In this document: piece by piece, positions 4,237 to 63,893 of the stretch
How positions within the stretch are numbered: the stretch's first letter is position 1
Layout of the letters: each line of letters begins with the position of its first letter
Source: an uncultured Dehalococcoidales bacterium
Lineage (GTDB): Bacteria > Chloroflexota > Dehalococcoidia > Dehalococcoidales > G020351185
Reading direction: 5' to 3'
Assembly (NCBI GenBank): GCA_964354125.1
Contig: CAYGXW010000001.1
Location: forward strand, 22,474 to 86,473
DNA: 64,000 nt
Program-made: the position numbers and the translations under genes
The notes under the pieces: generated by a model
What the model was told of the DNA's origin: nothing
The model's input: only the letters and a program-made list of their open reading frames with translations
Database searches by the model: none

Positions 4237-4368
4237 TTGGACTAGATTATAGCATTAAGAACTATAAATATAAAATAATCGGTAGCATCTAGCTTTAAGC
4301 TTGTTTGATAATCTAGTATAATGTTATTGGGAGTATATCTTGTTATTGTTAATGCAGTTGGGGCTCTG

Positions 4369-7999: not shown

Positions 8000-8066
8000 C
8001 TCCCACTCCCGAAACAGGCCTTTTGGGGCATTATTGGTGATTATATTAGAAATATAAAGCAATGAC

Positions 8067-8858: not shown

Positions 8859-8983
8859 AATATTTATAACTGATAACACTCAACCATTATTAGTGGTTAT
8901 TGATATTGCTATCCTCGAGTTATATTTAATGTATCTAAGTATTATAATGGTATTGTGATTGGTATTTCCAACCAGGGGGTTTA

Positions 8984-10231
8984 TTGATGCCTAAAACTAG
9001 GGTAGTATTAATTTCTGCTGTCTTTTTATCGTTATTTTGCTTATTGTTCGTAATTTTCTTTCCCTCATTAAACCTTGATTCCAGCATTAATAAGATAGTA
9101 AGCCCCTATAGATTTAGCATTTATGGCTGGGAATTGCAGGCTCTGTCCTATGAACTTGAGGAATTTGTTTTCGGTGGTGAAGAGGTTACTGCTGATGAGT
9201 CGCCTTTGGTTTTAGAATATTTTTCTCTTGTCCAGCGAATAAGGGAATTAGAGTGGCAGATTGTAGCTGTTGAAGATGGCACTGGAACCGACGAACTGGC
9301 ATCGCTTGAAGTTGAGCTAGATGTCTTGCAGAAACAGAAAGACGATCTGGAAGATAAAGCAGAGAGAGTTCTGGAAAAGCAAATAAAGGAAACCCTGGCT
9401 CAACTGGATATCTATAATCCGACGGATGACTCCCTGGGGCTTGAGATTACCTTTCCCCCGATAAACTTTGCCCTGGAGAAGCCGCCACGGCTACTTGTGG
9501 TTTCACCCAGGGACAGGATAGATAGAATCAGTGATATTACACTGCGGCAGGATATAACTATGGGAGAAATTGAAGAGATTGAAGCCGCTATTGATGAACT
9601 TGGGGTCTCTTCATTGGTGGTGGGGCTTGGTGGGGTTGCTACCTATCCCGCCTTCGTTAGCAACGACGCCAGCCTTCGCTTTGCCATTAACACGGCAATA
9701 GAAGAGTGGTTGCACCAGTACCTGTTTTTCAAGCTATTAGGATTCCTGTATTCCTTGGATTCAATCGGTATTTCACAAGATTATGAAATTATTGTTATGA
9801 ATGAGACGCTGGCTGGCATAGTCAGCAAGGAAATTGGTGATATTCTATACCAAAAGTATTACTCTCAATATGATGTTCTAAACAGTCAGATTGAGTCGGC
9901 AGAGGAAACAGAAGCTGAGTTTGATTTTTATAAAGAGATGAGGGGGATAAGAATCGCGGTTGATGAATATCTGGCTCAGGGAGAGGTTGAGAAGGCTGAG
10001 GAGTTTATGGAAAATAAACGGCTGTTTTTAGCCTCACAGGGCTACTATATCAGGAGGCTAAACCAGGCATACTTTGCTTTTTATGGTGCCTATGCTGATA
10101 GTCCAACTTCTATTGACCCTATCAGTGTTGAATTAAAGGCACTGAGGCAGAAGAGCGATTCACTTAGCGATTTTCTGAATATAGTTGCCGCTATGACCAG
10201 CCATAATGACTTAATTAATAGTATAGAATAA
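8984..10231 (+). CDS. hypothetical membrane-anchored protein (415 aa)
   Basis: N-terminal TM helix followed by an acidic coiled-coil segment. Divergent from the J-domain gene. I recognise no family. Confidence 0.55.
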   Translation: MMPKTRVVLISAVFLSLFCLLFVIFFPSLNLDSSINKIVSPYRFSIYGWELQALSYELEEFVFGGEEVTADESPLVLEYFSLVQRIRELEWQIVAVEDGTGTDELASLEVELDVLQKQKDDLEDKAERVLEKQIKETLAQLDIYNPTDDSLGLEITFPPINFALEKPPRLLVVSPRDRIDRISDITLRQDITMGEIEEIEAAIDELGVSSLVVGLGGVATYPAFVSNDASLRFAINTAIEEWLHQYLFFKLLGFLYSLDSIGISQDYEIIVMNETLAGIVSKEIGDILYQKYYSQYDVLNSQIESAEETEAEFDFYKEMRGIRIAVDEYLAQGEVEKAEEFMENKRLFLASQGYYIRRLNQAYFAFYGAYADSPTSIDPISVELKALRQKSDSLSDFLNIVAAMTSHNDLINSIE

Positions 10232-10982: not shown

Positions 10983-11639
10983 ATGGCTGAAGAAATAGGC
11001 AAGGTGGAAAAGCCAGCGGCAGATAAATTCAGAAAAGGGAGAAAATTATTTTTCATTCCTCTTATTTTTACACCATTTAAACCAGAGCCCGATTATATGA
11101 AATTAGTTAATAAGTACTGGGAACAGGTACAGGTACAAGTGAAAAATCTTGAGGAAAAGTTAACCAAGGTAAAGAAGGTGTATCACGAACTGGTAACCAC
11201 CGGTGGCAGCGAGGGAGCTAAGGCTATTGAGCAACTGAATACGGGAAGCTACCAAATTGTTAAGGGTGTTTTAAGCAACAGAGGGGCTAAGCTTCAACCG
11301 GTTGAAGACAGTGATTTGCTGGCTGAGCTTATGGACTGGAGCCGGTGTCTGGCGACCGGCCTACAGAGTCAGAAGGTATTCTCGCAGGTTTATCAATACT
11401 TTTTAGAGGTTCAGAAAAAAAGAAATGAGCAGATTGCCAATAATATAGACAAAACCCTGAAGGGTGACCAGATTGGGGTGCTGTTGATGAGGGAGGGGCA
11501 TCAGGTTCAGTTCCCATCTGACATACAAATATTTTATGTTGCCCCACCAAGCTTAGATGAAATCAGGCGCTGGTTCCGAGAACGAGAAGCCAGACCCCCA
11601 GCCCAAAAAGAAGATGAAGCTAGAAATAGCGGCACTTAG
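10983..11639 (+). CDS. hypothetical protein (218 aa)
   Basis: Long ORF with coding-like composition. I recognise no family. Confidence 0.5.
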   Translation: MAEEIGKVEKPAADKFRKGRKLFFIPLIFTPFKPEPDYMKLVNKYWEQVQVQVKNLEEKLTKVKKVYHELVTTGGSEGAKAIEQLNTGSYQIVKGVLSNRGAKLQPVEDSDLLAELMDWSRCLATGLQSQKVFSQVYQYFLEVQKKRNEQIANNIDKTLKGDQIGVLLMREGHQVQFPSDIQIFYVAPPSLDEIRRWFREREARPPAQKEDEARNSGT

Positions 11640-16291: not shown

Positions 16292-16798
16292 TCAGTAGGT
16301 GAGGTATTTTTGCCATTCGGTTATTTTTTCCAGGTAGGGATGCGGAATATAGAATGGGATTATACTGCGTGGCTGGGATGGCTGGCGAATTAGCTTCATG
16401 CCGGCCTGTTTCGGTGTTCTACCTGCCTTACGACGGTTACAGGGCACGCAAGCGCTGACCACATTCTCCCAGGTATGTTCACCACCCTGGTTTCTTGGAA
16501 CAACATGGTCTATAGTCAGTTGATGGCTTGTCTTGGCACAATACTGACAGGTATAGTGATCGCGGTGGAAAACACCGAGGCGGGTTAATTTTCTCTCAGG
16601 ATGGGGACGCTTAATCATATAGGCAAGCTTGATTACAGAAGGTATCGGGAAGATGTCATTAGCGGAGTGGATGAAACCCAAGCCGTTCTCTAGCATCTCA
16701 GCCTTGCCTCTGAGTATCAATACTACTGCCCGCCGTGCTTGGCATATATTAAGCGCTTCATAGCTCTGGTTTAGTACTAGTACTGGACTCTTTATCAT
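16292..16798 (-). CDS. HNH endonuclease
   Basis: Contains CQYC...LTIDHVVPRNQGGEHTWENVVSACVPCNRRK (HNH with a zinc-binding CxxC pair). Confidence 0.75.
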   Translation of the reverse strand: MIKSPVLVLNQSYEALNICQARRAVVLILRGKAEMLENGLGFIHSANDIFPIPSVIKLAYMIKRPHPERKLTRLGVFHRDHYTCQYCAKTSHQLTIDHVVPRNQGGEHTWENVVSACVPCNRRKAGRTPKQAGMKLIRQPSQPRSIIPFYIPHPYLEKITEWQKYLTY

Positions 16799-16877
16799 TT
16801 AGACTTCTCTTTTTAGACCTATTTTAATATAAAATTCACCACGGCACAAGCTTAAAATTACCTTATCTGATTGATAT

Positions 16878-18293
16878 TTATTGGCGTTGTCTTCTACCGC
16901 GGCTGACTGTTTTGGTGCCCTTCCTTGTGCTCACGTCCCCCCTGTAATCAGGGACATTGATGTTGAAGGGTGTGCTCAGCTTGGGGTCAACAAAGCGGGA
17001 GCTGATGCGGCTCTCAATATCTTCCAGTGCACAGCGGGTGGTAATTACCGTCGGTAGCTGGGCATTATAGCGGTAGTTAATGACCTGATATAATTTTTCC
17101 TGTGCCCAGGGTGTGGTTGCCTGTTCGCCAAAATCATCCAGGACAAGTAACGGGGTGGTCTTTACACTTTCAAAGAGCTGGTCGTAGGATATCTTGCTGT
17201 CGGGGCTGAAGGTGGAGCGTAGATGGTCAAGAAACTCGGGCACTACTACGAACATTGCCGGCTTTCCGGCCTGGTAGCGGTAGTTGACAATAGCAGAAGC
17301 AAGGTGTGTCTTGCCGCAGCCGGTGACACCCTGGAAAACCAGCCAGCTTTCGGGTGATTTAGCATAGTCCAGAGCCAACCGGTAGACATTTTCCAGACTT
17401 TCCCTTTGTTCCGGCAGCAGATTTACCCGTCGCCAGTCAAAATTCTTAAAGCTCATTTGTTTCTGCAGTTCCAGCCCTGGTGCCCAACCATAATCCAGAC
17501 TGTAAGTCCGTTTCTCTTCCAGTGTAAAAATCTGGCACAGCTTGTTATCTGTTAACCGGCTACGAATTCTTTCGTCCAGTTGTTCAATGGGGGTGCTGGT
17601 GGCAATGACGGTAGGTAGTTCCTGGTTATAGCGGTGATTTAGTAGCTGGTCCAGCTTCTCCTTAGCCCAGGGGGTACTGCTCTGTGTGCCCAGGTCATCC
17701 AGAATTAGTAGCGGGGCATTGCGTAATTGGTCAAAGGACTGGTCGTAGGGCATTTCTCGGTCGGGGCTAAAGGTGGAGCGCAGGTCATCCAGAAGGTCGG
17801 GGGTCGTTTTGTATAGAGCCGGCTGTCCCTGATTGATACGCTCGTTGGCGATAGACGCCGCCAGGTGAGTCTTGCCACAGCCGCTGGGACCGACCAGAAC
17901 CAGCCAGCCCTTGGGCTCCTTGGCAAATGCCTTGGCTGCCTCATAGGCATTGCGGAATTGCTGCTGGTTCAAGGGATAGCCACTCCTGCCCTGTGGCACC
18001 AGATTGTCAAAGGTAAGGCGCTTTAGTGAACCCAGATTGCTGTAATGCTCTAGATGGCTACGGCGTTCCTTATCCTTTTCACTGAGGGTGCAGTGGCAGG
18101 CGATCACCCGGCTGAAGTCCGGCTTACCCGAGGGCAGGGTCGGGTGTACAAAACGGGCACCTTTGCAGATATGGCAGATTGAATCTGATGAGGATTCTTC
18201 GGCTCCTTCAGCGCCGCCTGACCATATGTCCGTATTTGCCTTTGATGTACTTGTCTGGGTCTTCTTTTTCAGTGTCTCGCCTATATGCTCCAT
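16878..18293 (-). CDS. zinc-finger protein with two tandem DnaC/IstB-like AAA+ helicase-loader modules
   Basis: N-terminal CHICKG...CHC. Module 1 has GPSGCGKTHLA...LLILDDLG...TPWAKEKLDQLLNHRYNQELPTVIAT. Module 2 has GVTGCGKTHLA...LLVLDDFG...TPWAQEKLYQVINYRYNAQLPTVITT. Confidence 0.75.
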   Translation of the reverse strand: MEHIGETLKKKTQTSTSKANTDIWSGGAEGAEESSSDSICHICKGARFVHPTLPSGKPDFSRVIACHCTLSEKDKERRSHLEHYSNLGSLKRLTFDNLVPQGRSGYPLNQQQFRNAYEAAKAFAKEPKGWLVLVGPSGCGKTHLAASIANERINQGQPALYKTTPDLLDDLRSTFSPDREMPYDQSFDQLRNAPLLILDDLGTQSSTPWAKEKLDQLLNHRYNQELPTVIATSTPIEQLDERIRSRLTDNKLCQIFTLEEKRTYSLDYGWAPGLELQKQMSFKNFDWRRVNLLPEQRESLENVYRLALDYAKSPESWLVFQGVTGCGKTHLASAIVNYRYQAGKPAMFVVVPEFLDHLRSTFSPDSKISYDQLFESVKTTPLLVLDDFGEQATTPWAQEKLYQVINYRYNAQLPTVITTRCALEDIESRISSRFVDPKLSTPFNINVPDYRGDVSTRKGTKTVSRGRRQRQ

Positions 18294-18924
18294 CTTGCCT
18301 GCCTTCCCTAGCCCAGCGCTCTAGAATGGTTGCAATATAATCCCATTTACGTTTGTTCTGATTAACCGCTATTTTAATGGCATCCCTTATCCAGGTCTCA
18401 GGGTAGAGCTCTTCCGCCTCTTTTATTTCCTCGGCAATCATCGGCGTTAGCATACCGATGTTCTCTTCATAAAGGGTGAAAATATTGGGTAGTTCCTCAG
18501 TCTGTGTTGGGGGTATAGTTTTAGCTTTAAGCCCGGTGAGTTTCAGTTCTCCATCTTGAATCTTAGCCATAGACTGTCTATCGGATGGGGTGTTAAGGAA
18601 ATAGAGCTCTTCCGTTTCTCCATCACAATCTACTGCCAGATTTAGTATGGTTCCCCTTTTCACAGCCAGTTCCAGGGCACTTTTAAGTACCTCTTTAGCC
18701 GGTTTGTTAGTCTGCTCCAGGCTTCTCATCAGACCGGCATTAATTAATAACTCGCCGAAGCTTACAAATCGGGGGTGACCCTTTTTGCTATAAATTGCCA
18801 TGAAGATATGGAGTGTCGTCTTGAGCTCGTTTACATCGCTAATCTGGGACATTATATGGCTCAAAAAAGGGTTTGGGATGGGAGTAAATTCCATCCTGGC
18901 CGGGAAACCCCGAAACGGCTTCAT
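18208..18924 (-). CDS. DnaD/DnaB(Bsu)-domain replication initiation protein-like
   Basis: The C-terminal WIRDAIKIAVNQNKRKWDYIATILERWAREG resembles the DnaD-like (DnaB_2) domain. Located between dnaB and the DnaC-like gene. Its ATGA overlaps the dnaB stop. Confidence 0.6.
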   Translation of the reverse strand: MKPFRGFPARMEFTPIPNPFLSHIMSQISDVNELKTTLHIFMAIYSKKGHPRFVSFGELLINAGLMRSLEQTNKPAKEVLKSALELAVKRGTILNLAVDCDGETEELYFLNTPSDRQSMAKIQDGELKLTGLKAKTIPPTQTEELPNIFTLYEENIGMLTPMIAEEIKEAEELYPETWIRDAIKIAVNQNKRKWDYIATILERWAREGRQDGAYRRDTEKEDPDKYIKGKYGHMVRRR

Positions 18925-20315
18925 AGTAGCGTTGGCTCCGCTTTGGCAATATTTTCAAACCTGGTCAGGCTATGTTTGAAGCGTAGCTTCACCTGACCGG
19001 TGGGTCCATTACGATGCTTGGCGATTATTATATCAGCCATTTCTTTGGGGTATTCTTTATCCGGGTGCTGGCTTTGCCATTCCTCTACGGTTGGATAGTA
19101 AATCTCGTCACGGTAGATAAAAAGCACTAGGTCGGCATCCTGCTCAATACTGCCACTTTCACGCAGGTCGGAGAGTTGGGGTATGTGTGATGCCCGCCAC
19201 TCCGGAGCCCGGCTAAGCTGTGATACGGCAATAACCGGCACCTTTAATTCACGAGCCAGTGCTTTGAGGGAACGGGAGACATAGCTTATTTCCTGAACCC
19301 TGTTTTCATTTCTGCCATCCCCCTGTAGCAGCTGAAGATAGTCAACTATAATTAGGTCAATACCGCGTTCATAGTATAGACGGCGGGCTTTGCTCCTCAT
19401 TTCTACCACTCTAAGTTGTGGGGAATCGTCAATAAAAATAGACGCCTCCGAGAGTTTGCCAGTAGCCTCCATAATCAGTTTTTCTTCATCTTCTGTATTT
19501 AATCCCAGACGAATACGCCTTGAGTTTACCCCGGATTCACTGGAGAGCAGGCGCTGCACCAACCCCTCGCGAAACATCTCCAGGCTGAAAAGGGCGACAC
19601 AAGCCCCCTGTTCTATAGCGGCATTTCTGGCGATGTTAAGCACAAGGCTGGTCTTGCCCATGCTGGGTCTGCCGGCAATGATAATCAGGTCGGCGCGCTG
19701 GAAACCGCCCAGGAAATCGTCCAGGCCATCAAAACCAGACAGTGCATGCGGGATTGGCTGGTAGCCTTCTGCTTCCGGCGATGGTGGAGCCTCAAAGTAC
19801 CTGTCAAGAACCTGTTTTATGTGGACAAAATCCAGTGTTCCCCGTTCATGACGAAGCTTAAACAAGACATCTTCAGCCCTGTTTAGGGCATTACTAACAT
19901 CAGGGTCGGCTTCATAGCCGATACTGGAAATCTTTTCGGCAGAAGAAATCAGCTGTCGCATTATAGATAGACGGTAAACGATTCGGGCATAGTGTTCAAT
20001 ATCAAGGGAGGTAGGCACTATGGATATCAGGTGGCTTAAGTAGGCGGCACCGCCACATTTCTCAAGTTTCCCCTGTCGGTCCAGCTCTTGAGCCACTGTT
20101 ATCTGGTTTATTGCCTCATCACGCTGGTAGAGCGAAAGGCAGGCTTGGTATATCCACCTGTTTTGCTCGCTGTAGAAGTCCTCCGGTCTGAGTATTACAG
20201 CCACTTCATAGATAGCCTTGCCATCTATCAGCAGAGAACCGTTTACCGACTCCTCGGCATCAATATCATACGGCGGCAGTTTGTTATCCGGCACCTGAGC
20301 TGGACCCCTCCTCAC
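18921..20315 (-). CDS. dnaB: replicative DNA helicase
   Basis: N-terminal PPYDIDAEESVNGSLLIDG, Walker A GRPSMGKTS, Walker B IIVDYLQL, then SQLSR...SDLRESGSIEQDAD. Confidence 0.9.
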   Translation of the reverse strand: MRRGPAQVPDNKLPPYDIDAEESVNGSLLIDGKAIYEVAVILRPEDFYSEQNRWIYQACLSLYQRDEAINQITVAQELDRQGKLEKCGGAAYLSHLISIVPTSLDIEHYARIVYRLSIMRQLISSAEKISSIGYEADPDVSNALNRAEDVLFKLRHERGTLDFVHIKQVLDRYFEAPPSPEAEGYQPIPHALSGFDGLDDFLGGFQRADLIIIAGRPSMGKTSLVLNIARNAAIEQGACVALFSLEMFREGLVQRLLSSESGVNSRRIRLGLNTEDEEKLIMEATGKLSEASIFIDDSPQLRVVEMRSKARRLYYERGIDLIIVDYLQLLQGDGRNENRVQEISYVSRSLKALARELKVPVIAVSQLSRAPEWRASHIPQLSDLRESGSIEQDADLVLFIYRDEIYYPTVEEWQSQHPDKEYPKEMADIIIAKHRNGPTGQVKLRFKHSLTRFENIAKAEPTLL

Positions 20316-23785: not shown

Positions 23786-24958
23786 TCATGAAGAATATTC
23801 GGCAAACTCTTTTTTGACCTGGTTAACGGTTTCTGGACTGGACAAAAGGTCAAACACCGTCATTGCCAGAGCCTGGGCGGCGTCAATCATTCCCTGAATG
23901 CCAGCCTCGGAGGTAGCCGCCTCAGCAAACTGGGGAGAATGAGTGTTCATTACTTCGGGGGCTATGGCTACTGAGGGATGGATGCTGGGTACCAGATGGC
24001 TAACATTACCCATATCGGTACTGCCAAAGGATTTACTGGCATTTTCTAACTGTACTTCACGCCCCAGAGAGTTCATATTATTGATAAAAAACTGAGCCAG
24101 GGTCAGGTTATTACGCATCGAGGCATACTGTACCTCCCCCCACCTGTATTCCAGTCTGGCACCGGTGGCAGTGGCGGCACCAATGAAGCAGTTCAAGACC
24201 TTTTCTTTTAATTCCTCAAGGTAGGCTTCATCCGGGGAGCGTACTAAAAAGTTTGCCGCACTATGAGCCGGAACAACATTGGCTGCCTGGCCGCCATCGG
24301 TGATAATCCCATGGATTCGGGCTTTATCCTTGATGTGCTGGCGCAATGAATTAATAGCGGTAAAAGACTGAATCATTGCCTCCAGGGCATTGATACCTTC
24401 TTCTGGATGGGCGGCGGCATGTGCCTCCTGACCAAAGAACTCAACCTCAAGTGAAATGCAGGCTAGGGCTCTGGTGGTGGCAGTGTCATGTCTTGAAGGG
24501 TGCACCATCATGGCCATATCAATATCTTTAAAGGCTCCTCTCTGGGCCATTATTATCTTACCACCATATAGTTCCTCGGCTGGCGTGCCCAGGACAATAA
24601 CAGTACCCCCAAAATGGTCAATAGCTGGTTTGGCAGCCACGGCGGCACCGACGGCGATACCGGCTATTAGATTGTGACCGCAGGCGTGACCAAGCTGGGG
24701 CAGGGCGTCATATTCGGCTAGAATGGCAATAGACGGTCGGCTTTTGCCATAGCTGGCTCTGAAAGCAGTCGCCAGCTGGCAGATACCCTTTTCTACGGCA
24801 AAGCCATTTGTTTCAAGATATTGGGTTAACCATTTTGAGGCTTTGTATTCCTGAAAACCCAATTCAGGGTGTGAGTGTATTTTCAGGCTCAGCCTGCTAA
24901 GCTTTTGGCGCTGTTTGTTAACTTCGGCTTTAACTAGAGCCTTGAAGTCTTGAGCCAT
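23786..24958 (-). CDS. M20-family amidohydrolase/peptidase (M20D-like)
   Basis: Contains HACGHN and GTPAEE metal-binding motifs. Length is 390 aa. Confidence 0.75.
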
Positions 24959-52433: not shown

Positions 52434-53081
52434 ATGAAGCAATATTACAGGATGGTTCAGGAGAAGATACTGGTGCAAAGGGATATAATCTGCTCCCTGC
52501 TGAAAGACCCGCAGATAATCGGTGATTATTATGAGGCGATAATCAGGGATGCGGTCAGGGAAAGCATATCAAAATCTTTTGATGTCGGGCGCGGGGTAAT
52601 CCTATCTGAAACGGGAAACAGCAGTCGTGAGTGTGACATAATTGTTTACAGCGCCGCCGAATATGGGCCGCTGTTTGTATCGGGGGATATAGTGGTGGTA
52701 AAGCCTGAGGCAGTGAGGTGTGTTATTCAGGTAAAGGGCACTCTAAGCAATGATAGCATTATGGATGCCATAAAAAATTTGACCTCAGTTAGCCGATTAA
52801 GAGAAGGTATATGGAAGCTGATAGTTGGCTTCAAAACCGATGTTCTTTACGAAACTATAGTTAAAAATTGCGCCCAGTCAAAGGTTGTAAATGGTGTGTT
52901 TGTACTTTCCACCATCAGTAGAAGAGAGAAAGAAGACATTACCTTACAGATGCAGAAGTTCATCGGGCTTCTAAAATCAATTACCGCCCCGGGTATGTAT
53001 CAAAAGACCGATGCCGGTAACTATCTAGCCCTTGAAGCCACCGGAAGAGATAAATTTGAGGGTGTGCCATTCCCAGAGTGA
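52434..53081 (+). CDS. PD-(D/E)xK-fold (restriction-endonuclease-like) protein, resembles the family I recall as DUF6602
   Basis: GDYYEAIIRDAV...FDVGRGVILSETGNSSRECDIIVYS...GDIVVVKPEAVRCVIQVKGTL fits the D...(D/E)-x-K core layout. Strong SD (AGGAGG). Confidence 0.55.
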   Translation: MKQYYRMVQEKILVQRDIICSLLKDPQIIGDYYEAIIRDAVRESISKSFDVGRGVILSETGNSSRECDIIVYSAAEYGPLFVSGDIVVVKPEAVRCVIQVKGTLSNDSIMDAIKNLTSVSRLREGIWKLIVGFKTDVLYETIVKNCAQSKVVNGVFVLSTISRREKEDITLQMQKFIGLLKSITAPGMYQKTDAGNYLALEATGRDKFEGVPFPE

Positions 53082-53098
53082 GTAATGTAGTAAAATAA

Positions 53099-53941
53099 TT
53101 ATAATTTAATTCCTGCTTTTGATGCCTTTAATTTTAAGTAATTTATAAATGCTGAACATGATACTAGCATAAATTTTGCGTCTTCAAAATCTAATTGGGA
53201 TTCATCTAATAAAGAGTGACGTATCCCATCCGCATCGCTTGTATATCCGTATAGTTTACAAAACGCCTGTTCTAAAGCAAGATGTAGAGGCATTTTATCC
53301 TTGATTACTCTTAACGCTTTCCCTAAAGTTGCTTTGTTATTACCTGTTATTATTCTACAAATTGCCTCTACGGCACTTATTGATTCTTTAATAGAATTCC
53401 TGTAATCAGGGCTTTGCTTATCTGAGAGAAAATCTAGTGCTGTTTTTAGATGTATTGTAACGGGTTTAAGAGAATCTGTAGACTCTAGTGCCTCTTCTAT
53501 TTCGGATATTTCTTCTTCAGAGGTTATAGGTGCTATTTCTCCGCCAATAAACCGCCAACCAGACACTTCACGTTCTAATATATAATTACAGTAGTTTGTG
53601 AATTTCTCATTTATACCTTGGATAGAATAGTTACCAACGACAAATTGTATAAAATCGTAAACTTCAAACCATTTGAAGGAAAAGAAATATTCTTTTACTT
53701 CTTTTCTTGCATCCTCATAATATGTAGGTATGGTATCAAAGGGTTTCTTGAAGTAATCCAGCCATAAATTAAAAAATAGTGAATAGAGATTTTTATGTTC
53801 TTTGAGCCACCCACTGCCTGTGGTTTGCAAATAGTGAATATCCAATGCGTTCCATAGCCCAACACGTAAATCGTTATCCATATTATCAATTTGCATAACA
53901 TTCTTTATTGGCCTATAACCATATTTTTCAGAAAAAAGCAT
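53099..53941 (-). CDS. AbiJ-like protein (AbiJ N-terminal domain plus C-terminal HEPN-type domain)
   Basis: N-terminus FSEKYGYRPIKNVMQIDNMDNDLRVGLWNAL and C-terminus SISAVEAI...KLYGYTSDADGIRHSLL...AKFMLVSCSAFINYL match my memory of AbiJ-NTD/HEPN proteins. G+C is about 30 %. Confidence 0.6.
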   Translation of the reverse strand: MLFSEKYGYRPIKNVMQIDNMDNDLRVGLWNALDIHYLQTTGSGWLKEHKNLYSLFFNLWLDYFKKPFDTIPTYYEDARKEVKEYFFSFKWFEVYDFIQFVVGNYSIQGINEKFTNYCNYILEREVSGWRFIGGEIAPITSEEEISEIEEALESTDSLKPVTIHLKTALDFLSDKQSPDYRNSIKESISAVEAICRIITGNNKATLGKALRVIKDKMPLHLALEQAFCKLYGYTSDADGIRHSLLDESQLDFEDAKFMLVSCSAFINYLKLKASKAGIKL

Positions 53942-55760: not shown

Positions 55761-56402
55761 CTATTCCTTATACATCCCCTGAATGTCACGGCAATAGTTG
55801 CCTTCCGGCGTCTCAACTACTATGTAATAGAACTGTTTGTTTACCGGGTTCTGTTCCAGGAAAGCCTTGGCAGAAGCGGCGTCGGGTGCCTTGTGAACCC
55901 GATAAGTCATGGTGGTACCATACCTTTGCACGCAGTCTTCCCTGACAAACTTAACCTGGGATGGTTTAGCCTCTTTTGCTTTAGCTGCAGGGGCGGCACG
56001 TCTCTCTGGCTCCTGGTCGTTCTTTCGCTGACCACCATGTTTGGCGAAGCTCTCCTTGGTTTTTTGCCATAGTTCATGTGTCAGGTCGTCACCGCAAATA
56101 ACTGCCTCATATTTACCTTGCTCTGTTTTGTAGTAGCCGAAAATCAAAACCTCGGTACATATTAGTTTTTGAGAATTATCCGCGATGTGGATGCAAGGTA
56201 ATTCCAGCAGGGCTTTTCTGGCATCTTCATCGTTATCAAAGGTGTACATGACGAAGGGGTCTTTCTTTGGCGAGCTTATGCGAGCCATCCAGTAGGAACT
56301 GGCGATGTCCAGGGTATCATGGCGCGTTCCCTTATTATCCTTTTCGGTGAAGATTTTAGGCGGTTTCTCCTTTTCTCCGAACAACTTGTCTAAAAAACCC
56401 AT
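55761..56402 (-). CDS. hypothetical protein with two similar small domains joined by a basic/Ala-rich linker
   Basis: 213-aa ORF located 12 nt downstream of the lysS stop. I recognise no family. Confidence 0.5.
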   Translation of the reverse strand: MGFLDKLFGEKEKPPKIFTEKDNKGTRHDTLDIASSYWMARISSPKKDPFVMYTFDNDEDARKALLELPCIHIADNSQKLICTEVLIFGYYKTEQGKYEAVICGDDLTHELWQKTKESFAKHGGQRKNDQEPERRAAPAAKAKEAKPSQVKFVREDCVQRYGTTMTYRVHKAPDAASAKAFLEQNPVNKQFYYIVVETPEGNYCRDIQGMYKE

Positions 56403-59569: not shown

Positions 59570-59878
59570 CTAATCAGTAATTCCCGGGATCTTGATGCCG
59601 CCGGTTAGCTTGCTGAGGTGTTTATCAGCTAGCTTTCTTGATTTATCTAGGGTATCGGTTACTGCTTTGAGCACCAGCTTTTCCAGTTGGGCTGATTTTT
59701 TGGGGTCTATAACCTCGGGTGATATTTTAATGGATAGTATTTTTTGCTGACCACTGGCGGTAACCTTAACCGCCCCATTCCCTGATTCTGCTTCAACGGT
59801 CATTTTGGCTAGCTCTTTTTGAGTCTTCTCCAGCTTGGATTTGAGTTCTAGGGCTTGTTTTACCATAGAAAGGTTCAT
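59570..59878 (-). CDS. ybaB: nucleoid-associated protein YbaB/EbfC
   Basis: 102 aa in the conserved dnaX-ybaB-recR arrangement. Contains GNGAVKVTASG and a C-terminal LTGGIKIPG. Confidence 0.85.
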   Translation of the reverse strand: MNLSMVKQALELKSKLEKTQKELAKMTVEAESGNGAVKVTASGQQKILSIKISPEVIDPKKSAQLEKLVLKAVTDTLDKSRKLADKHLSKLTGGIKIPGITD

Positions 59879-61455
59879 TTTTCCTCCATGTCAATAATTT
59901 GAGCGCCTATTTTCTGCGCCTCCCGTACTAGGTAATTCTCCTCTGGTTCATAAACGCAACGAACCTGACAGGAATAGCCCATAAAATTACTTATAATCTG
60001 GGCGGTTATTCTCCTGTTTTCCGGTTCCTCTATCTTCTCCTTATGGTAGGGATATCTGAATGTCAGGATTACGGTGTCACCCTCAAAAGCTACCGGTTGT
60101 ACACCAGCACTTCTGAGGATAGCAACAGCCGGGGTTCTTTTAACCCCTTCCGGGGCTTGCTCAATGACCTGTCTCCAGTTTGATTTTAATTGCTCTAACT
60201 TGTTATCCGTTTCTAGTGGAGTAGCTTCAGCTACTTCTACCGCTGAGGGCGAGACTTCAGCCGGTTCCGGTTCTTTCACCGGTTTTTTCTTTTGTTTGGG
60301 GATAGCTGGTGGTGTGGCTGCCTTCACAGGTTTAATAGGTTCAGGTTCACTATGCTTAACAGGTACTAATTTTTCTTCTGTTGAGGTAAGGGTGCAGTCA
60401 ACTAATGCCAGCTCTAATGGTAAGGTGGAATAATCGTTGAGAACTATCTCAAGATGACCAAAGAGTTTTACCGCTTTTAAGATTTGTTCTGTGGAGGTTC
60501 TGTTGGCTAAATCTTTTAACACAGCTATTTCTTCAGCGGTAAGGTCAAGGTCTTTCTCGCAGCCATTCTTTATAAGTAGTAAACCTCTGAGGTAGGCTAC
60601 CAGTTCCCGGTTGAATTGCTTAAGGTCAATGCCGTCACTGCTTACAGCATTTATTATTTTTATTCCAGCCGAGATATCGTTATTTACAATATGCTCAACC
60701 AGCTCTTTGGCTCGCTCATCACCGGTAACCCCTAAGATAGCCTGAGCCTGGCTCAGCCCAATATCCGAGCCGTAGTAGGCAAAGAGCTTCTCTAAAATAT
60801 TTTCGGCATCCCGAAGGCTACCGGCGGCGCTCTTGGCAATTAGCTTTAGTGCTTCTGGTTCTACATTTATGCCTTCTGAACTACAAATACGGCTCAGTTT
60901 GAGCATAATATCCTTTTGGCTGACGCGACGGAAATCAAAACGCTGGCATCGTGACATAATGGTAGGCAGTACTTTATGGACTTCGGTGGTCGCCAGGATA
61001 AAGATGACATTTGGTGGTGGTTCCTCAAGCGTCTTGAGCAGTGCATTGGATGCATTGATGCTGAGCATGTGGACTTCATCTATAATATAAACCTTATACT
61101 TGGCTTGATTTGGGGCATAACTGACCTTTTCTCGGAGGGCTCTGATATCATCAACGCCGGTGTTTGAGGCGGCATCAATCTCAATGACATCCAGGGCTCT
61201 GCCATCGGTGACTGCCCGGCACATATCACAGGTATTACACGGCTCGCCTTTGCCGTTGGTAAGGCAGTTTATCGCCTTAGCCAGAATACGGCCGGTACTG
61301 GTCTTACCCGTCCCTCTTGGGCCACAAAAAAGATAGGCGTGAGAGACACGTTCACTACTCAGGGCGTTAAGCAATGTTCTGGTTACTTGCTCCTGGCCAA
61401 CGACCTCAGCCAGGGTTTGCGGGCGCCATTTGCGATAGAAGACCTGCGAGTCCAT
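59875..61455 (-). CDS. dnaX: DNA polymerase III subunit gamma/tau
   Basis: Contains FYRKWRPQTLAEVVGQE, GPRGTGKTS, a zinc module (CxxCxxC), IIDEVHML and SRCQRF. Confidence 0.9.
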   Translation of the reverse strand: MDSQVFYRKWRPQTLAEVVGQEQVTRTLLNALSSERVSHAYLFCGPRGTGKTSTGRILAKAINCLTNGKGEPCNTCDMCRAVTDGRALDVIEIDAASNTGVDDIRALREKVSYAPNQAKYKVYIIDEVHMLSINASNALLKTLEEPPPNVIFILATTEVHKVLPTIMSRCQRFDFRRVSQKDIMLKLSRICSSEGINVEPEALKLIAKSAAGSLRDAENILEKLFAYYGSDIGLSQAQAILGVTGDERAKELVEHIVNNDISAGIKIINAVSSDGIDLKQFNRELVAYLRGLLLIKNGCEKDLDLTAEEIAVLKDLANRTSTEQILKAVKLFGHLEIVLNDYSTLPLELALVDCTLTSTEEKLVPVKHSEPEPIKPVKAATPPAIPKQKKKPVKEPEPAEVSPSAVEVAEATPLETDNKLEQLKSNWRQVIEQAPEGVKRTPAVAILRSAGVQPVAFEGDTVILTFRYPYHKEKIEEPENRRITAQIISNFMGYSCQVRCVYEPEENYLVREAQKIGAQIIDMEEK

Positions 61456-61537: not shown

Positions 61538-61573
61538 TAAAAAAGTCCCCCTCTCGCCTAGAAGAAGGGGACT
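61538..61573 (-). terminator. Rho-independent terminator downstream of the tubulin-like gene
   Basis: On the minus strand the stem AGTCCCC...GGGGACT (61573-61567 and 61550-61544) is followed by TTTTTT (the complement of the A-run at 61539-61544). Confidence 0.7.
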
Positions 61574-61598: not shown

Positions 61599-62771
61599 TT
61601 ATAACAGAGTGGGTATGTCTTTGCCTGTCTCTTCTATGGTTTTAAGCTTAGCCTCTACCTCTTTCTGCCTCTGTTTTATGACCGGCACCAGATTGGTAGA
61701 TTTATTATAGTATTGTCTCACCTTTTCCACATCACTGAGTTCAGACAGGATAAGTGTTACATTCAGGACACCGCTTTCTCTTGGATAGTCACCATCCCTT
61801 ATTATGGAATTCGGAGCCAGGTCCTTTAGCCAGTCGCCGAGTTCCTTGACCAGGTCCATATTGATTTCCTTGGCTGGCGCCGACAGGAGATAAAGTGCTC
61901 TGCCGGCATCCTTAGCGTTGCATCTGGTTGATAGCTCGCTTATGGCTTCATCCATTGCCTGAATACCTTTATGGGTTTCGGTGCTTTTTTCCCTGAAGCT
62001 CTTTGCTCCAATTGGCAGCTTGAACCTTTTTAGATGAGACTTGCCATAGCCGATTACAGTCCAGCCCAAAAGGGTCTGTATAATATCTCCAGCATCAAGT
62101 GTCTTGGCACCAACATGCCCGGCTTTTTTCTCTTCACCGGCGCAGAGAAGGTTGTAGAATGGGTCAACTATTAAGGTATTGATTTTAGTCAGGTTGTTCT
62201 TCAGCGAGAAGTCCTTTCGGACGTATCTCTGATTGTCAATGAGAATTACAGCATCAGCCACTGAATAAAGGGATTTAAGGCATACTGCTGTGTTGTAGAC
62301 GGTTCTTTCCTCATTCTCCTCTTCATGCTCAAAGGGAAGAACGGCAAGTCCGTATAATGGTTTGTCTGAATAGCGTTCTTTAATATACTGAGCCATTATT
62401 GGTATTGAACCGGAACCGGTACCACCGGCGGCACCGGCAATCAGCAGAAAGGCATCCGTTTCATAAAATCGTTTGGTTGCCCTGAGGGCGTCAACAACCT
62501 TGTCGGCGTCTTCTCTGGCTATCTCAGCGCCCAGCTCGTTGATCTTACCGACACCGTGACCACCAGTTTTACGACCACCAATAAGTATTCGGTGTTGATA
62601 ATCAGTATTTATTGTTGCCAGCCCGCTTAAATCAGCGGCATCTGTATTAACAGCAAAAACACCCGGAGTTATCTCAATCCCGCGGTGGCTGTGTGCTCTT
62701 CTATTTAATCGGGCAAACTCATCGGCAATACGACTACCACACTGCCCAAAACCGATGACTACTAATTTCAT
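61599..62771 (-). CDS. tubulin/FtsZ-superfamily GTPase, CetZ/tubulin-like rather than canonical FtsZ
   Basis: T1 loop is IGFGQCGSRIADEF (tubulin/CetZ-style GQxG, not the FtsZ GGGGxN). T4 signature is AGAAGGTGSGS. Also has NELGAEIA and a T7-like TLDAGDIIQTL. Length is 390 aa. Confidence 0.7.
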   Translation of the reverse strand: MKLVVIGFGQCGSRIADEFARLNRRAHSHRGIEITPGVFAVNTDAADLSGLATINTDYQHRILIGGRKTGGHGVGKINELGAEIAREDADKVVDALRATKRFYETDAFLLIAGAAGGTGSGSIPIMAQYIKERYSDKPLYGLAVLPFEHEEENEERTVYNTAVCLKSLYSVADAVILIDNQRYVRKDFSLKNNLTKINTLIVDPFYNLLCAGEEKKAGHVGAKTLDAGDIIQTLLGWTVIGYGKSHLKRFKLPIGAKSFREKSTETHKGIQAMDEAISELSTRCNAKDAGRALYLLSAPAKEINMDLVKELGDWLKDLAPNSIIRDGDYPRESGVLNVTLILSELSDVEKVRQYYNKSTNLVPVIKQRQKEVEAKLKTIEETGKDIPTLL

Positions 62772-62879
62772 CTTACAACCTCCATATTCTATATATAAAC
62801 TAGATTAGTTATTTTAATCCTTATATTTTGTCAATGTCAACCTTACCAATGTACCATTAGCAAATTATTATAGTAAAGA

Positions 62880-63893
62880 CTACAGACCTTTATTGGCGAT
62901 GAAGGCAGACAGGTCAGCCAAACGGCAGCAGTAGCCCCATTCATTATCATACCAGGCAAGTATCTTGACCATGTTACCGCCTATAACCATAATACTGGGT
63001 ACATCAATAATAGAGCTGGCGGGATTGCCTTTAAAGTCACTGCTGACCAGGGGTTCCTGGCAGCACTCCAGGATTCCTTTTAACCGTCCCTCGGCGGCTG
63101 ATTGAAAAGCCTTTTTCACCTGCTCAACAGTAACATCTCTATCCAGTTCGGCGACAAGGTCAATAATAGAGACGGTGGTTATTGGCACCCTGAAGGCTAT
63201 GCCATGAAGTTTACCTTCAAGCTCGGGTATTACCTGTCCTATGGCATAGGCGGCGCCGGTGGTAGTCGGTACCAGATTTACTGCCGCCGAGCGGGCACGG
63301 CGCAGGTCTTTGTGGAACATATCCAGAAGTCTCTGGTCGTTGGTATAGGCGTGGACAGTGGTCATCAGTCCCTTTGTTATACCGAAGCTCTGATGTAACA
63401 CCTTGGCTACCGGTGCCAGGGCGTTTGTGGTACAGGAGGCATTGGATATGACATGATGCTTTTTGGGCTTATATTTATCTTCGTTAACGCCGAGAACAAT
63501 GGTAATATCTTCATTCTTAGCCGGGGCTGAGATAAGCACCTTCTTAACACTACCTTGCCGGTGAGCTATCGCCTTGGTGGCGTCGGTGAACTTGCCTGTT
63601 GACTCTATCACTATTTCTACACCATAATCTGACCAGGGAATACTAGCCGGCTCACGCTCTGAGAGCACCTTTATTTCCTTACCATCTACATTGATTGTAT
63701 CGTCGGTGGCTTCTATAGTGCCGGGGTAGGCTCCGTAGGTGCTATCCCATTTAAGAAGGTGAGCATTGGTTTTGGCATCAGTCAGGTCATTAACGGCTAT
63801 TACCTCAAGCTTGCCGCTGTAGTACTGGTTTATCGTCCTCAGCATCAGTCTACCAACCCGCCCGAATCCGTTAATACCAATATGGGTCGCCAT
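62880..63893 (-). CDS. gap: type I glyceraldehyde-3-phosphate dehydrogenase
   Basis: Contains INGFGRVGR, the catalytic SNASCTTN and WYDNEWGY motifs. Confidence 0.95.
   Translation of the reverse strand: MATHIGINGFGRVGRLMLRTINQYYSGKLEVIAVNDLTDAKTNAHLLKWDSTYGAYPGTIEATDDTINVDGKEIKVLSEREPASIPWSDYGVEIVIESTGKFTDATKAIAHRQGSVKKVLISAPAKNEDITIVLGVNEDKYKPKKHHVISNASCTTNALAPVAKVLHQSFGITKGLMTTVHAYTNDQRLLDMFHKDLRRARSAAVNLVPTTTGAAYAIGQVIPELEGKLHGIAFRVPITTVSIIDLVAELDRDVTVEQVKKAFQSAAEGRLKGILECCQEPLVSSDFKGNPASSIIDVPSIMVIGGNMVKILAWYDNEWGYCCRLADLSAFIANKGL

Follow-up and report, generated by a model that had tools for sequence, protein, structure and literature searches.

Does the gene between gap and dnaX in this bacterial genome encode a divergent FtsZ or a protein of the CetZ type, and what might such a protein do in its host? 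The CetZ family (Duggin et al. 2015, cited in PMC9856176) is still called archaea-specific in recent specialist papers (PMC9856176, PMC11621097). The host of the gene described here is not an archaeon but a Dehalococcoidales bacterium, and the window (the whole stretch of 64,000 nucleotides that was analyzed) encodes a bacterial sigma-70, DnaG, DnaB, F-type ATP synthase and similar proteins.

The cetZ-like gene occupies a conserved chromosomal slot

The features of the locus are as follows.

61599..62771, minus strand: cetZ-like gene, ORF from ATG to TAA, encoding a 390-aa tubulin/FtsZ-superfamily GTPase
62880..63893, minus strand: gap (glyceraldehyde-3-phosphate dehydrogenase), upstream neighbour; Gp_dh_N and Gp_dh_C were found on an identical Logan contig
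59875..61455, minus strand: dnaX (DNA polymerase III tau/gamma), downstream neighbour, followed by ybaB, recR and recO
62811..62840, minus strand: promoter-like site TTGACA-18 nt-TAAAAT (11/12), a pattern match from a consensus scan, about 40 nt 5' of the cetZ-like ATG
62780..62784, minus strand: Shine-Dalgarno-like GGAGG, 8 nt 5' of the cetZ-like ATG, from the upstream sequence
61538..61573, minus strand: intrinsic-terminator-like hairpin and T-run; a 12-bp stem (6 G-C pairs) at 61573-61544, then TTTTTT

The names dnaX, ybaB, recR and recO were taken from synteny BLAST and from reading of the translations. The promoter-like site and the GGAGG ribosome-binding site are additional to the signals listed in the original prediction, which had assigned the gene its own terminator and regarded it as apparently monocistronic. 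The terminator was recovered as a hairpin with a T-run. Since the promoter-like site, the ribosome-binding site and the terminator occur together, a monocistronic unit is plausible from these consensus matches. The consensus scan also found a separate promoter-like site near dnaX, at 61496-61469.

The GC content of the cetZ-like gene is 0.460 and that of the window is 0.467, and both GC and GC3 agree with those of the neighbouring genes. A phmmer search against all six-frame ORFs of the window returned only the protein itself and no paralogue. A second 390-aa ORF in the window (23786-24958) is an M20 peptidase. The original prediction had also seen other archaeal-flavoured genes in the window, and this impression did not hold. 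The window has 56 ORFs of 150 aa or more. A Pfam scan of 51 of them revealed ordinary bacterial housekeeping genes; the remaining five (recO, recR, dnaX, gap and a 151-aa ORF that overlaps) were read from their translations.

The bacterial housekeeping setting between gap and dnaX was confirmed by conserved synteny, as the order gap-cetZ-like-dnaX-ybaB-recR-recO is kept in most of 79 loci. All of these loci come from Dehalococcoidia/Chloroflexota MAGs, one of which is labelled 'delta proteobacterium', and their cetZ-like proteins are 67-100% identical across different Dehalococcoidales species. The cetZ-like proteins fall into hundreds of 90%-identity clusters, with clade labels taken from the minority of cluster representatives that carry an organism name, and 141 stretches were confirmed in the species-representative genome collection. 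A branch from SAR202-type marine Chloroflexota is 36-39% identical to the protein of the window (hereafter the query). We made several conclusions from these data. First, the cetZ-like gene is a conserved core gene of Dehalococcoidales, and the relatives also carry a normal FtsZ. In addition, its composition, its own expression signals and its fixed place on the chromosome, conserved throughout the order, show that it is native. Finally, gap appears from the gene order to be a conserved syntenic partner, with no functional link indicated as far as shown. The gap/dnaX neighbourhood gives no functional clue for the cetZ-like protein.

Domains, fold and motifs of the protein resemble those of CetZ

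The features of the protein are as follows, all genomic coordinates being on the minus strand.

Residues 3-182: Tubulin domain (Pfam PF00091)
Residues 189-356: CetZ_C domain (Pfam PF21011)
Residues 7-12, 62736..62753: T1 nucleotide-binding loop GFGQCG, of the GxGQxG type found in CetZ and tubulin, versus GGGGxN in FtsZ
Residues 71-75, 62547-62561: GHGVG, at verified coordinates
Residues 116-121, 62409..62426: T4 tubulin signature GGTGSG, 100% conserved in both bacterial groups
Residues 211-223, 62103..62141: AGEEKKAGHVGAK, between H7 and T7, holding an 8-residue insertion
Residues 224-229, 62085..62102: T7 synergy loop TLDAGD, by alignment to 4b46
Residues 246-260, 61992..62036: extended M-loop HLKRFKLPIGAKSFR, hydrophobic/basic, of low model confidence
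Residues 362-383, 61623..61688: long C-terminal helix after the C-terminal domain, from DSSP on the AF2 model
Residues 385-390, 61602..61619: C-terminal tail peptide DIPTLL, conserved

Pfam recognized the Tubulin domain at 120.5 bits (cutoff 33, E=1.4e-34) and the CetZ_C domain at 62.8 bits (cutoff 21.6, E=3.8e-17), the latter over profile positions 3-176 of 180; such a resemblance is well outside what chance would give. The best PDB match by phmmer was Haloferax volcanii CetZ1 (4b46, 1.5e-46), aligned over residues 1-382 and thus full length; further matches were CetZ2 (4b45, 5.6e-30) and 3zid (1e-15). The best FtsZ reached 7e-12 with the N-terminal domain only. An identity as tubulin, BtubAB or artubulin was rejected, because Pfam found no Tubulin_C domain in the protein and because tubulins, BtubA/B and the Asgard tubulin gave PDB matches of about 1e-7 to 5e-6 over partial regions only.

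The AF2 model of the protein has a pLDDT of 91.5, with the minimum at residues 252-254, inside the M-loop. In a Foldseek search of the PDB, which yielded more than 1,100 superfamily matches at E<=0.001, ranks 1-3 were CetZ structures (CetZ1, TM 0.93, rmsd 1.9 Å; CetZ2, TM 0.94). These were ahead of the FtsZs (TM ~0.82, rmsd 3-3.4 Å), and no tubulin was among the best 50 matches. The model and the alignments have the two-domain fold with helix H7 and an acidic T7 loop that defines the tubulin/FtsZ superfamily. The sequence is ~32% identical to CetZ1 and 22-23% identical to E. coli FtsZ or the co-resident FtsZ of relatives.

The original prediction had called the protein CetZ/tubulin-like, with several blocks like those of Haloferax CetZ1. 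The domains and the top sequence and structure matches agree with this assignment, and the likeness to CetZ1 was borne out residue by residue in the alignment with 4b46. All of the motifs quoted there, including the tubulin signature GGTGSG, were found in the 390-aa translation at verified coordinates; AVNTDAADL, GHGVGKINELGAEIARED, DAFLLIAGAAGGTGSG and PLYGLAVLP are all present. The predicted GQxG form of T1 was likewise found, the query reading GFGQCGSR, whereas the co-resident FtsZ of relatives reads GLGGGGCN and E. coli FtsZ reads GVGGGGGN. In an alignment with few reference sequences, the query also showed other CetZ-type states, namely GHGVG at T3, DN[QD] versus PND, and LP versus [RK]P at T5.

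The T1 residues G7, G9, Q10 and G12 are 100% conserved among 92 Dehalococcoidales and 118 SAR202-type sequences. So are D226 and D229 of T7, which align with D215/E218 of CetZ1 and with the DxxD positions of FtsZ. The E218A variant of CetZ1, altered at the position aligned with D229, is a GTPase-blocked mutant (bioRxiv 10.1101/2024.04.08.588506). The nucleotide-binding T1 and T4 loops and the catalytic T7 Asp-x-x-Asp loop are intact and invariant. The 8-residue insertion before T7 is common to the query and archaeal CetZ but missing in FtsZ, in an alignment of CetZ1, CetZ2, the pHV4 CetZ, Nitrososphaerales proteins and two FtsZs. The M-loop, too, is inserted with respect to FtsZ, and in the alignment it is comparable to the long M-loop of CetZ1.

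A tail of the D[IV]P[ST]L[LIF] type is present in 90 of 91 Dehalococcoidales cetZ-like copies. It resembles CetZ1 LESLF and the C-terminal peptide of co-resident FtsZ (DVPSFL and IPSFM, within the tails ELDVPSFLRK and ELSIPSFMRQ). The likeness to FtsZ is that of a six-residue motif, in which the aromatic Phe of FtsZ is usually Leu in the cetZ-like proteins.

Taken together, the query is like archaeal CetZ (H. volcanii CetZ1/CetZ2; 4b46, 4b45) in its Tubulin and CetZ_C domains, full-length alignment and top structure match. It is also alike in the GxGQxG T1, GHGVG, DN[QD], the insertion before T7 and the acidic residue aligned with E218, as well as in the extended M-loop, the C-terminal helix and the short conserved hydrophobic tail. 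The differences lie in the bacterial host, the ~32% identity to CetZ1, a separate clade (181/200 bootstraps) and a D-I-P-S/T-L-L tail nearer to the FtsZ peptide than to LESLF. In addition, haloarchaeal CetZs are strongly acidic whereas the query is not, and its gap/dnaX setting bears no relation to those described for archaeal cetZ genes in PMC9856176.

The protein is distinct from the canonical FtsZ of its lineage

NCBI/JGI records of cetZ-like proteins often say 'cell division protein FtsZ' or 'cell division GTPase FtsZ', and the FtsZ model TIGR00065 weakly matches the query across the N-terminal domain. Both would suit a reading as canonical FtsZ, from a lineage that has diverged, with a superficial CetZ likeness. 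This reading is extremely improbable and is refuted by several comparisons. The query scored 71.8 bits with TIGR00065, for which the cutoff is 295.2; this is more than 220 bits short and comes from the N-domain only. Pfam found no FtsZ_C (PF12327) in the query, which has CetZ_C in its place. The FtsZ of a related MAG (locus L031), used as a positive control, scored 413.9 bits with TIGR00065 and 103.4 bits with FtsZ_C. The T1 loop is GQCG and not GGGGxN, the identity to FtsZ is lower than that to CetZ1, and the FtsZ group was split off in 200/200 bootstraps of a neighbour-joining (NJ) tree, so that the query does not fall inside bacterial FtsZ.

Nor is the protein the sole FtsZ of the lineage, an outcome under which the original prediction was to be given up. 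The L031 locus has the order mraZ-rsmH-ftsA-ftsZ-cetZ-like-nrdR, with a cetZ-like paralogue adjoining ftsZ, and the same MAG also holds a gap-cetZ-like-dnaX locus (L039). An extra cetZ-like paralogue stands directly beside canonical ftsZ in four loci. The 64-kb window itself contains neither ftsA nor ftsZ. Published data agree with the coexistence: mraZ-mraW-ftsA-ftsZ is present in all investigated Dehalococcoidales and SAR202 genomes (PMC10608941), and DET0343 (ftsZ) and DET0342 (ftsA) are accompanied by two more 'FtsZ' genes, DET0589 and DET0636 (PMC5102406).

The query shares with canonical FtsZ the superfamily fold, GGTG(S/T)G, the T7 Asp-x-x-Asp and, following a helix or linker, a C-terminal peptide of the form D-[IV]-P-x-[FL]-[LM]. 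It differs in the T1 loop, in the insertions before T7 and in the M-loop, and in its location between gap and dnaX, outside the mraZ-rsmH-ftsA-ftsZ cluster. We conclude that the gene almost certainly encodes a bacterial CetZ-like protein, a tubulin/FtsZ-superfamily GTPase distinct from FtsZ. The label 'cell division protein FtsZ' on many database records of cetZ-like proteins is a mis-annotation.

The Chloroflexota proteins form a sister clade of archaeal CetZ

The trees were built by NJ from simple distances with limited outgroups, on a 61-taxon set with 200 bootstraps. The Dehalococcoidales and SAR202-type Chloroflexota proteins formed a clade of their own (181/200). The sampled archaeal side (145/200) held CetZ1, CetZ2 and the pHV4 CetZ of H. 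volcanii, and the query lay outside it. The set had no labelled Thermococcales, and the query was not placed in the NJ tree inside a clade with Thermococcales CetZs as the deepest branch. In an earlier NJ run that included P0139, the inner query-side nodes reached 6-27/100, low values caused in part by this one unstable taxon. Three Nitrososphaerales/Bathyarchaeia proteins, non-canonical members of the tubulin superfamily (P0152, P0159 and P0203), are among the top-scoring archaeal relatives, with 34-37% identity, and the Bathyarchaeia protein P0203 ends in KDIPPLL, the tail motif of the query. Unlike the query, all three are placed on the archaeal side by the NJ trees. By these sequence comparisons, the query is in a Chloroflexota-specific clade sister to archaeal CetZ and CetZ-like proteins. 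The accurate label is therefore 'CetZ-like', as the query falls into a sister clade made up of bacterial proteins and not on the sampled archaeal CetZ side.

Among bacterial tubulin homologues other than FtsZ, TubZ and PhuZ are the best known. The nearest characterized relatives of the query are archaeal, and CetZ paralogues occur on haloarchaeal megaplasmids. Even so, a TubZ/PhuZ-type mobile-element segregation tubulin or a recent archaeal import or contaminant is hardly credible: most of the 79 loci have the gene at one and the same chromosomal site, flanked by gap and dnaX, its GC and GC3 match those of the neighbouring genes, and the neighbourhood is a housekeeping one with no mobile-element genes beside the cetZ-like gene in the window. 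A tblastn search of 72,556 plasmids returned haloarchaeal records only and no bacterial plasmid, and with the conserved synteny this led us to reject the plasmid TubZ reading. Recent transfer or contamination is effectively refuted by synteny, GC and the bacterial clade itself, which is monophyletic and diverse and therefore speaks for long vertical inheritance. An ancient transfer from archaea to the ancestor of Dehalococcoidales and SAR202 is possible; this is a question of origin and not a rival function.

The original prediction had considered a bacterial CetZ homologue notable. The bacterial cetZ-like gene is confirmed, but its novelty is weakened by Santana-Molina et al. 2023 (PMC9871819), who mention CetZ-like proteins in Chloroflexota-Dehalococcoidia in one sentence as 'sparse paraphyletic groups'. 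Their CetZ C-terminal HMM matched Chloroflexota sequences at ~1e-10, and they, too, named these proteins 'CetZ-like' and kept them apart from canonical CetZ. The query evidently belongs to this group, matched by the same taxon and the same C-terminal-domain diagnostic. Given that the group was already published, the finding is not a discovery. In contrast to the 'sparse paraphyletic' description, the proteins are here widespread, syntenic and, in a limited NJ analysis, monophyletic.

Possible roles as a polymer at the cell envelope or as an accessory in division

By analogy with CetZ1, FtsZ and tubulin, the cetZ-like protein would bind GTP and assemble head-to-tail into protofilaments, and the T7 loop of one subunit would complete the GTPase site of the next and so drive polymer turnover. 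A GTP-dependent polymer is, on this analogy, likely. CetZ1 forms GTP-dependent polymers in vitro, and mutations in its T7, T4, M-loop and C-terminal tail change its function (bioRxiv 10.1101/2024.04.08.588506). Lateral or membrane contacts are probably made via the extended hydrophobic/basic M-loop, and the polymer probably attaches to a partner through the invariant D-I-P-S/T-L-L peptide at the C-terminus. The leading candidate is FtsA, because the tail closely resembles the FtsZ C-terminal peptide. The role that we put first, although only tentatively, is a non-division cytoskeletal scaffold at the envelope, for shape or envelope organization, in peptidoglycan-less, S-layer-type bacteria; it would parallel what CetZ1 does when Haloferax cells change from discs to rods. 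The explanation as a whole (a Chloroflexota CetZ-like clade, a GTP-dependent polymer and an envelope scaffold) seems to us fairly probable.

The protein could instead be an accessory division protein, a second and divergent Z-ring component beside canonical FtsZ. By analogy, this would be like the FtsZ1/FtsZ2 division of labour in archaea without a pseudomurein wall, and the protein would share or compete for FtsA via its tail. We consider this possible but rather unlikely. The four loci in which a paralogue adjoins canonical ftsZ, such as L031, and the resemblance of the D[IV]P[ST]L[LIF] tail to the FtsZ peptide of the same genomes are consistent with it. Furthermore, peptidoglycan and most dcw genes are gone from the lineage, which must therefore divide without septal wall synthesis (PMC10608941). 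In the proteome of D. mccartyi BTF08, the 'FtsZ/tubulin GTPase' btf_0551 and the 'FtsZ' btf_0595 were detected, and both were less abundant, together with other division proteins, in co-cultures in which the cells changed from disc to barrel-like (PMC8163811); these two proteins, like DET0589 and DET0636, are tied to the cetZ-like gene by annotation. The paralogues beside ftsZ and this co-variation fit a division role no less well than a shape role. On the other hand, the window copy lies outside the dcw remnant, in the gap/dnaX slot as in most genomes. For CetZ1 and CetZ2, the closest characterized relatives, PMC9856176 and further abstracts give functions in shape and motility and mention none in division. 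The lineage still has canonical FtsZ and FtsA, and a second ring protein is therefore not obviously needed.

A broader form of the envelope-scaffold reading is speculative, and we regard it as doubtful. The Chloroflexota CetZ-like clade would be a wall-independent cytoskeleton that the common ancestor of Dehalococcoidales and SAR202 gained or kept as it gave up peptidoglycan and took on an archaeal-style proteinaceous envelope. It would shape or organize the envelope of disc-shaped or irregular cells, dock onto FtsA via its FtsZ-mimic tail and be encoded in many genomes by a four-gene module. This module may consist of two CetZ-like paralogues and two Ala/Glu-rich, apparently coiled-coil proteins. 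The window contains no coiled-coil partner genes.

Implications for peptidoglycan-less Chloroflexota

Dehalococcoidales includes Dehalococcoides, a bioremediation organism. The Dehalococcoidales and SAR202-type bacteria are Chloroflexota lineages without peptidoglycan, yet with ftsA-ftsZ (PMC10608941), and the cetZ-like protein bears on how such cells keep their shape and divide. It raises a tractable question, namely the part that a CetZ-type polymer may have in bacterial shape or division, with FtsA as a possible anchor. If the wall-independent cytoskeleton reading were true, a CetZ-type cytoskeleton would be present in SAR202, which the abstract of PMC11994032 describes as dominant in the dark ocean. 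It would then be a cross-domain solution for S-layer-bounded cell shape and not an archaeal speciality.

Sequence features of the cetZ-like gene

The cetZ-like ORF encodes a protein of 390 aa with an ATG start and a TAA stop, and all motifs quoted in the original prediction were present in its translation. The GC content of the gene (0.460; GC3 0.448) matches the window (0.467) and the neighbour genes.

61599-62771, minus strand: cetZ-like ORF; the blocks AVNTDAADL, GHGVGKINELGAEIARED and PLYGLAVLP lie within it (translation)
62736-62753, minus strand: T1 loop MKLVVIGFGQCGSRIADEF, residues 7-12 (translation)
62409-62426, minus strand: tubulin signature within DAFLLIAGAAGGTGSG (translation)
62840-62811, minus strand: promoter-like TTGACA-18-TAAAAT, 11/12 consensus match
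8 nt 5' of the ATG, minus strand: RBS-like GGAGG (sequence)
61573-61544, minus strand: terminator-like hairpin, 12-bp stem with 6 G-C pairs, then a T-run (pattern)
61496-61469: separate promoter-like site of dnaX (consensus match)

Since the gene carries its own terminator-like, promoter-like and GGAGG signals and dnaX a separate promoter-like site, the proposed monocistronic unit is plausible, as judged from consensus matches rather than transcripts; the proposed terminator was recovered as a pattern.

The protein is most similar to CetZ

Besides a Tubulin/FtsZ GTPase domain scoring 120.5 bits, Pfam detected the CetZ C-terminal domain PF21011, aligned nearly end to end at 62.8 bits (cutoff 21.6). 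The NCBIfam FtsZ equivalog TIGR00065 scored 71.8 bits (cutoff 295.2) and covered the N-terminal domain only. The top match in the PDB sequence search was H. volcanii CetZ1 (4b46, E=1.5e-46, residues 1-382 aligned), followed by CetZ2 (4b45, 5.6e-30) and Methanosaeta CetZ (3zid, 1e-15). The top FtsZ (7e-12) aligned over residues 30-184 only, and tubulins ranged from 4e-7 to 5e-6. The alignment thus upholds the block-by-block likeness to CetZ1 noted in the original prediction. An AlphaFold2 model from a 44-sequence family alignment was confident (pLDDT 91.5, pTM 0.89) and contained a long C-terminal helix (residues 362-383). In Foldseek against the PDB, CetZ1 (target-normalised TM 0.93, rmsd 1.9 A), CetZ2 (0.94, 2.0 A) and Methanosaeta CetZ ranked first, FtsZs ranked below them (TM ~0.82, rmsd 3-3.4 A), and no tubulin appeared in the top 50.

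HMMER was run exhaustively over 1.84 billion representatives clustered at 50% identity; 1,818 relatives reached E<=1e-3, and 82 reached E<=1e-30. Neighbour-joining (NJ) trees combined full-length representatives and Dehalococcoidales paralogues with archaeal anchors (H. volcanii CetZ1/CetZ2, taken from the PDB alignment, and annotated haloarchaeal megaplasmid CetZ paralogues) and FtsZ anchors (E. coli FtsZ and four FtsZs co-resident with cetZ-like genes). The 61-taxon tree (372 columns, 200 bootstraps), built like the other from simple distances and leaving out tubulin, TubZ, archaeal FtsZ and labelled Thermococcales CetZ, resolved FtsZ (200/200), a bacterial CetZ-like clade (181/200) and an archaeal side (145/200). 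In an earlier 112-taxon tree, the archaeal side split off in 100/100 bootstraps. Every named member was from Chloroflexota on the query side and from archaea (haloarchaea, Nitrososphaerales, Bathyarchaeia) on the other, the labels resting on the minority of representatives that carry organism names. On average, the bacterial and archaeal CetZ-like groups were 27% identical to each other, and either one was 21% identical to FtsZ. The phylogeny thus separated the protein from FtsZ but placed it outside the sampled archaeal CetZ side; it is accurately described as "CetZ-like, bacterial sister clade" and not as canonical CetZ.

A deeper query-side branch comprised CetZ_C-bearing proteins of 418-424 aa, from MAGs named "Chloroflexi", "Dehalococcoidia" or "SAR202 cluster". 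This SAR202-type branch (database representatives P0149, P0336, P0445 and relatives) derives from marine MAGs of SAR202 type and from others of the class Dehalococcoidia; the contigs reach 4.7 Mb.

Conservation and genomic context

The large protein database held an identical sequence and hundreds of clusters at 77-94% identity; the matches that carry names were MAG proteins from Dehalococcoidia, Dehalococcoidales or Chloroflexota. Scanning a single genome for each GTDB species confirmed 141 stretches with cetZ-like genes. The 79 loci kept were from Dehalococcoidia-type MAGs throughout (67-88% identity to the query), and most retained the order gap - cetZ-like - dnaX - ybaB - recR - recO. Given this conservation of gene order and homologues, the gene is a vertically inherited core gene of Dehalococcoidales, and a contaminant or recent import is ruled out.

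Nothing was found in support of the archaeal-flavoured genes proposed for the window. Its remainder consists of ordinary bacterial housekeeping genes, including leuB/leuA, DnaJ, holB, DnaB helicase and loader, L9, PlsX, UvrA, sigma-70, DnaG, PPDK, the F-type ATP synthase operon, endonuclease V, a release factor, SerRS and Lys/Asp-type tRNA synthetases. No ftsZ, ftsA or sepF was found within the 64 kb. Other observations concern a low-GC patch at 52-54 kb (GC 0.40 vs ~0.47 elsewhere), which may be a small abortive-infection/defence islet inserted beside serS (52434-53941); a protein unusual for a small-genome bacterium, made almost wholly of leucine-rich repeats, next to a DnaJ-domain protein; and a replication cluster (16292-20315, minus strand).

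52434-53081, plus strand: DUF6602 protein, low-GC patch
53099-53941, minus strand: AbiJ_NTD4-domain protein, low-GC patch
7034-8062, minus strand: 342-aa leucine-rich-repeat protein (LRR_4, 174.7 bits, 7 stretches)
8067-8879: DnaJ-domain protein
18921-20315, minus strand: DnaB helicase
18208-18924, minus strand: DnaB_2/DnaD-like protein
16878-18293, minus strand: 471-aa IstB/DnaC-like AAA+ protein with a second P-loop-like region
16292-16798, minus strand: HNH endonuclease gene, after the AAA+ gene
2714-3190, 4321-4959, 4994-5695, 6482-6985, 8984-10231, 10983-11639, 55761-56402: seven predicted ORFs (156-415 aa) with no Pfam match at E<=1e-5

Canonical FtsZ and additional paralogues

Tblastn of genuine E. 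coli FtsZ against the fetched Dehalococcoidales DNA revealed a canonical ftsZ in four loci (L031, L070, L066 and L061; 44-46% identity over 308-357 residues), all from related MAGs. In each, an extra cetZ-like paralogue adjoins ftsZ. The order in L031 (5811-11986) is mraZ - rsmH - ftsA - ftsZ - cetZ-like - nrdR; FtsA scored 391 bits with TIGR01174 and FtsZ 413.9 bits with TIGR00065 plus an FtsZ_C domain, and the paralogue scored 70.8 bits with TIGR00065 and has CetZ_C. The gap-side locus occurs in the same MAGs as the ftsZ-side one (NZBQ, L031 and L039; CAZCLE, L070 and L025). [quoted passage not shown] With a canonical ftsA-ftsZ pair present in related MAGs, the cetZ-like protein is ruled out as the FtsZ of the lineage.

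MAGs with the ftsZ-adjacent paralogue hold FtsZ and two or three CetZ-like proteins. In 26 of the 79 loci (e.g., L024 5688-11176 and L056 10001-14724, both outside the window), the gap-dnaX slot itself holds a second paralogue (61-70% identity to the query). In every case two genes on the opposite strand come with it; they encode repeat proteins of ~175 aa and 570-744 aa that are rich in Ala/Glu and apparently coiled-coil. In L024 the longer of these proteins matched Phasin_2; the others had no match in the Pfam search. Together, the two cetZ-like and two repeat genes resemble a cytoskeletal module of four genes. In the window genome the slot holds a single cetZ-like copy, and the 64 kb contain no such repeat-protein gene.

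Conserved features and possible function

Across 92 Dehalococcoidales and 118 SAR202-type sequences, T1 GxGQxG, T4 GGTGSG and both T7 aspartates (D226, D229) never vary. The CetZ1 residue aligned with D229 is E218, whose mutation (E218A) blocks GTPase activity (bioRxiv 10.1101/2024.04.08.588506). Unlike FtsZ, the bacterial cetZ-like proteins and archaeal CetZ share an 8-residue pre-T7 insertion, GHGVG in T3, DN[QD] where FtsZ has PND, and an extended M-loop. The query M-loop HLKRFKLPIGAKSFR is hydrophobic/basic and is the sole low-confidence stretch of the model; LLGRFR of the SAR202-type branch resembles the amphipathic LLSRL tip of haloarchaeal CetZ1, a functionally important protrusion (bioRxiv 10.1101/2024.04.08.588506). 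The extreme C-terminus D[IV]P[ST]L[LIF] (61602-61619 in the window) occurs in 90/91 Dehalococcoidales copies. It resembles the C-terminal peptide of co-resident FtsZ (ELDVPSFLRK, ELSIPSFMRQ), E. coli FtsZ DIPAFL, and the hydrophobic tail conserved among archaeal CetZs (LESLF, ELDSLF). The last residues of P0203, a CetZ-like protein from Bathyarchaeia, are KDIPPLL.

Given the invariant T1/T4/T7, the CetZ-type insertions and M-loop, and the FtsZ-like tail, the protein would form a GTP-dependent polymer with dynamic turnover, which the tail would recruit to a partner. The likeness to the FtsA-binding peptide of FtsZ may reflect a shared docking partner, FtsA being the obvious candidate.

We favor, by analogy, a role as an envelope-associated cytoskeleton for cell shape or organisation. 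According to the CetZ literature, CetZ1 polymerises in vitro with GTP and is required for the disc-to-rod transition and motility-machinery assembly in Haloferax, and CetZ2 affects morphology in the opposite way. The wall of Dehalococcoidales is of S-layer type and lacks peptidoglycan (PMC10608941), so that their envelope is somewhat like the haloarchaeal one. D. mccartyi BTF08 expresses "FtsZ/tubulin GTPase" btf_0551 and "FtsZ" btf_0595, matched to the cetZ-like gene by annotation only, and both are present at lower levels in co-cultures whose cells change from disc-like to barrel-like (PMC8163811). The main rival is an accessory role in division, to which the ftsZ-adjacent paralogues and the FtsZ-like tail point.

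Relation to previous work and annotation

Specialist papers call the CetZ family archaea-specific (PMC9856176, PMC11621097). However, Santana-Molina et al. 2023 (PMC9871819) explicitly recorded "Chloroflexota-Dehalococcoidia" as holders of CetZ-like proteins and reported that bacterial Chloroflexota sequences match their CetZ C-terminal HMM at ~1e-10; the same sequences are caught by Pfam CetZ_C and by a single JGI product name. The original prediction of a CetZ-like protein thus holds, but such proteins had been reported before. No functional study of bacterial CetZ-like proteins turned up in the literature searches. The literature searched mentions neither the synteny across the order nor the second paralogue and its two Ala/Glu-rich repeat proteins, nor the ftsZ-adjacent copies, the FtsZ-like tail or the coincidence with peptidoglycan-less lineages.

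The usual database labels are "cell division protein FtsZ" or "tubulin/FtsZ family protein", with "tubulin-like protein CetZ" once. The first is widespread in the clade (P0035, P0063, P0095, P0100, P0132 and many JGI entries), and the proteins so labelled score >220 bits under the FtsZ equivalog cutoff. These FtsZ labels are a systematic mis-annotation that conceals the CetZ-like family in genome surveys.
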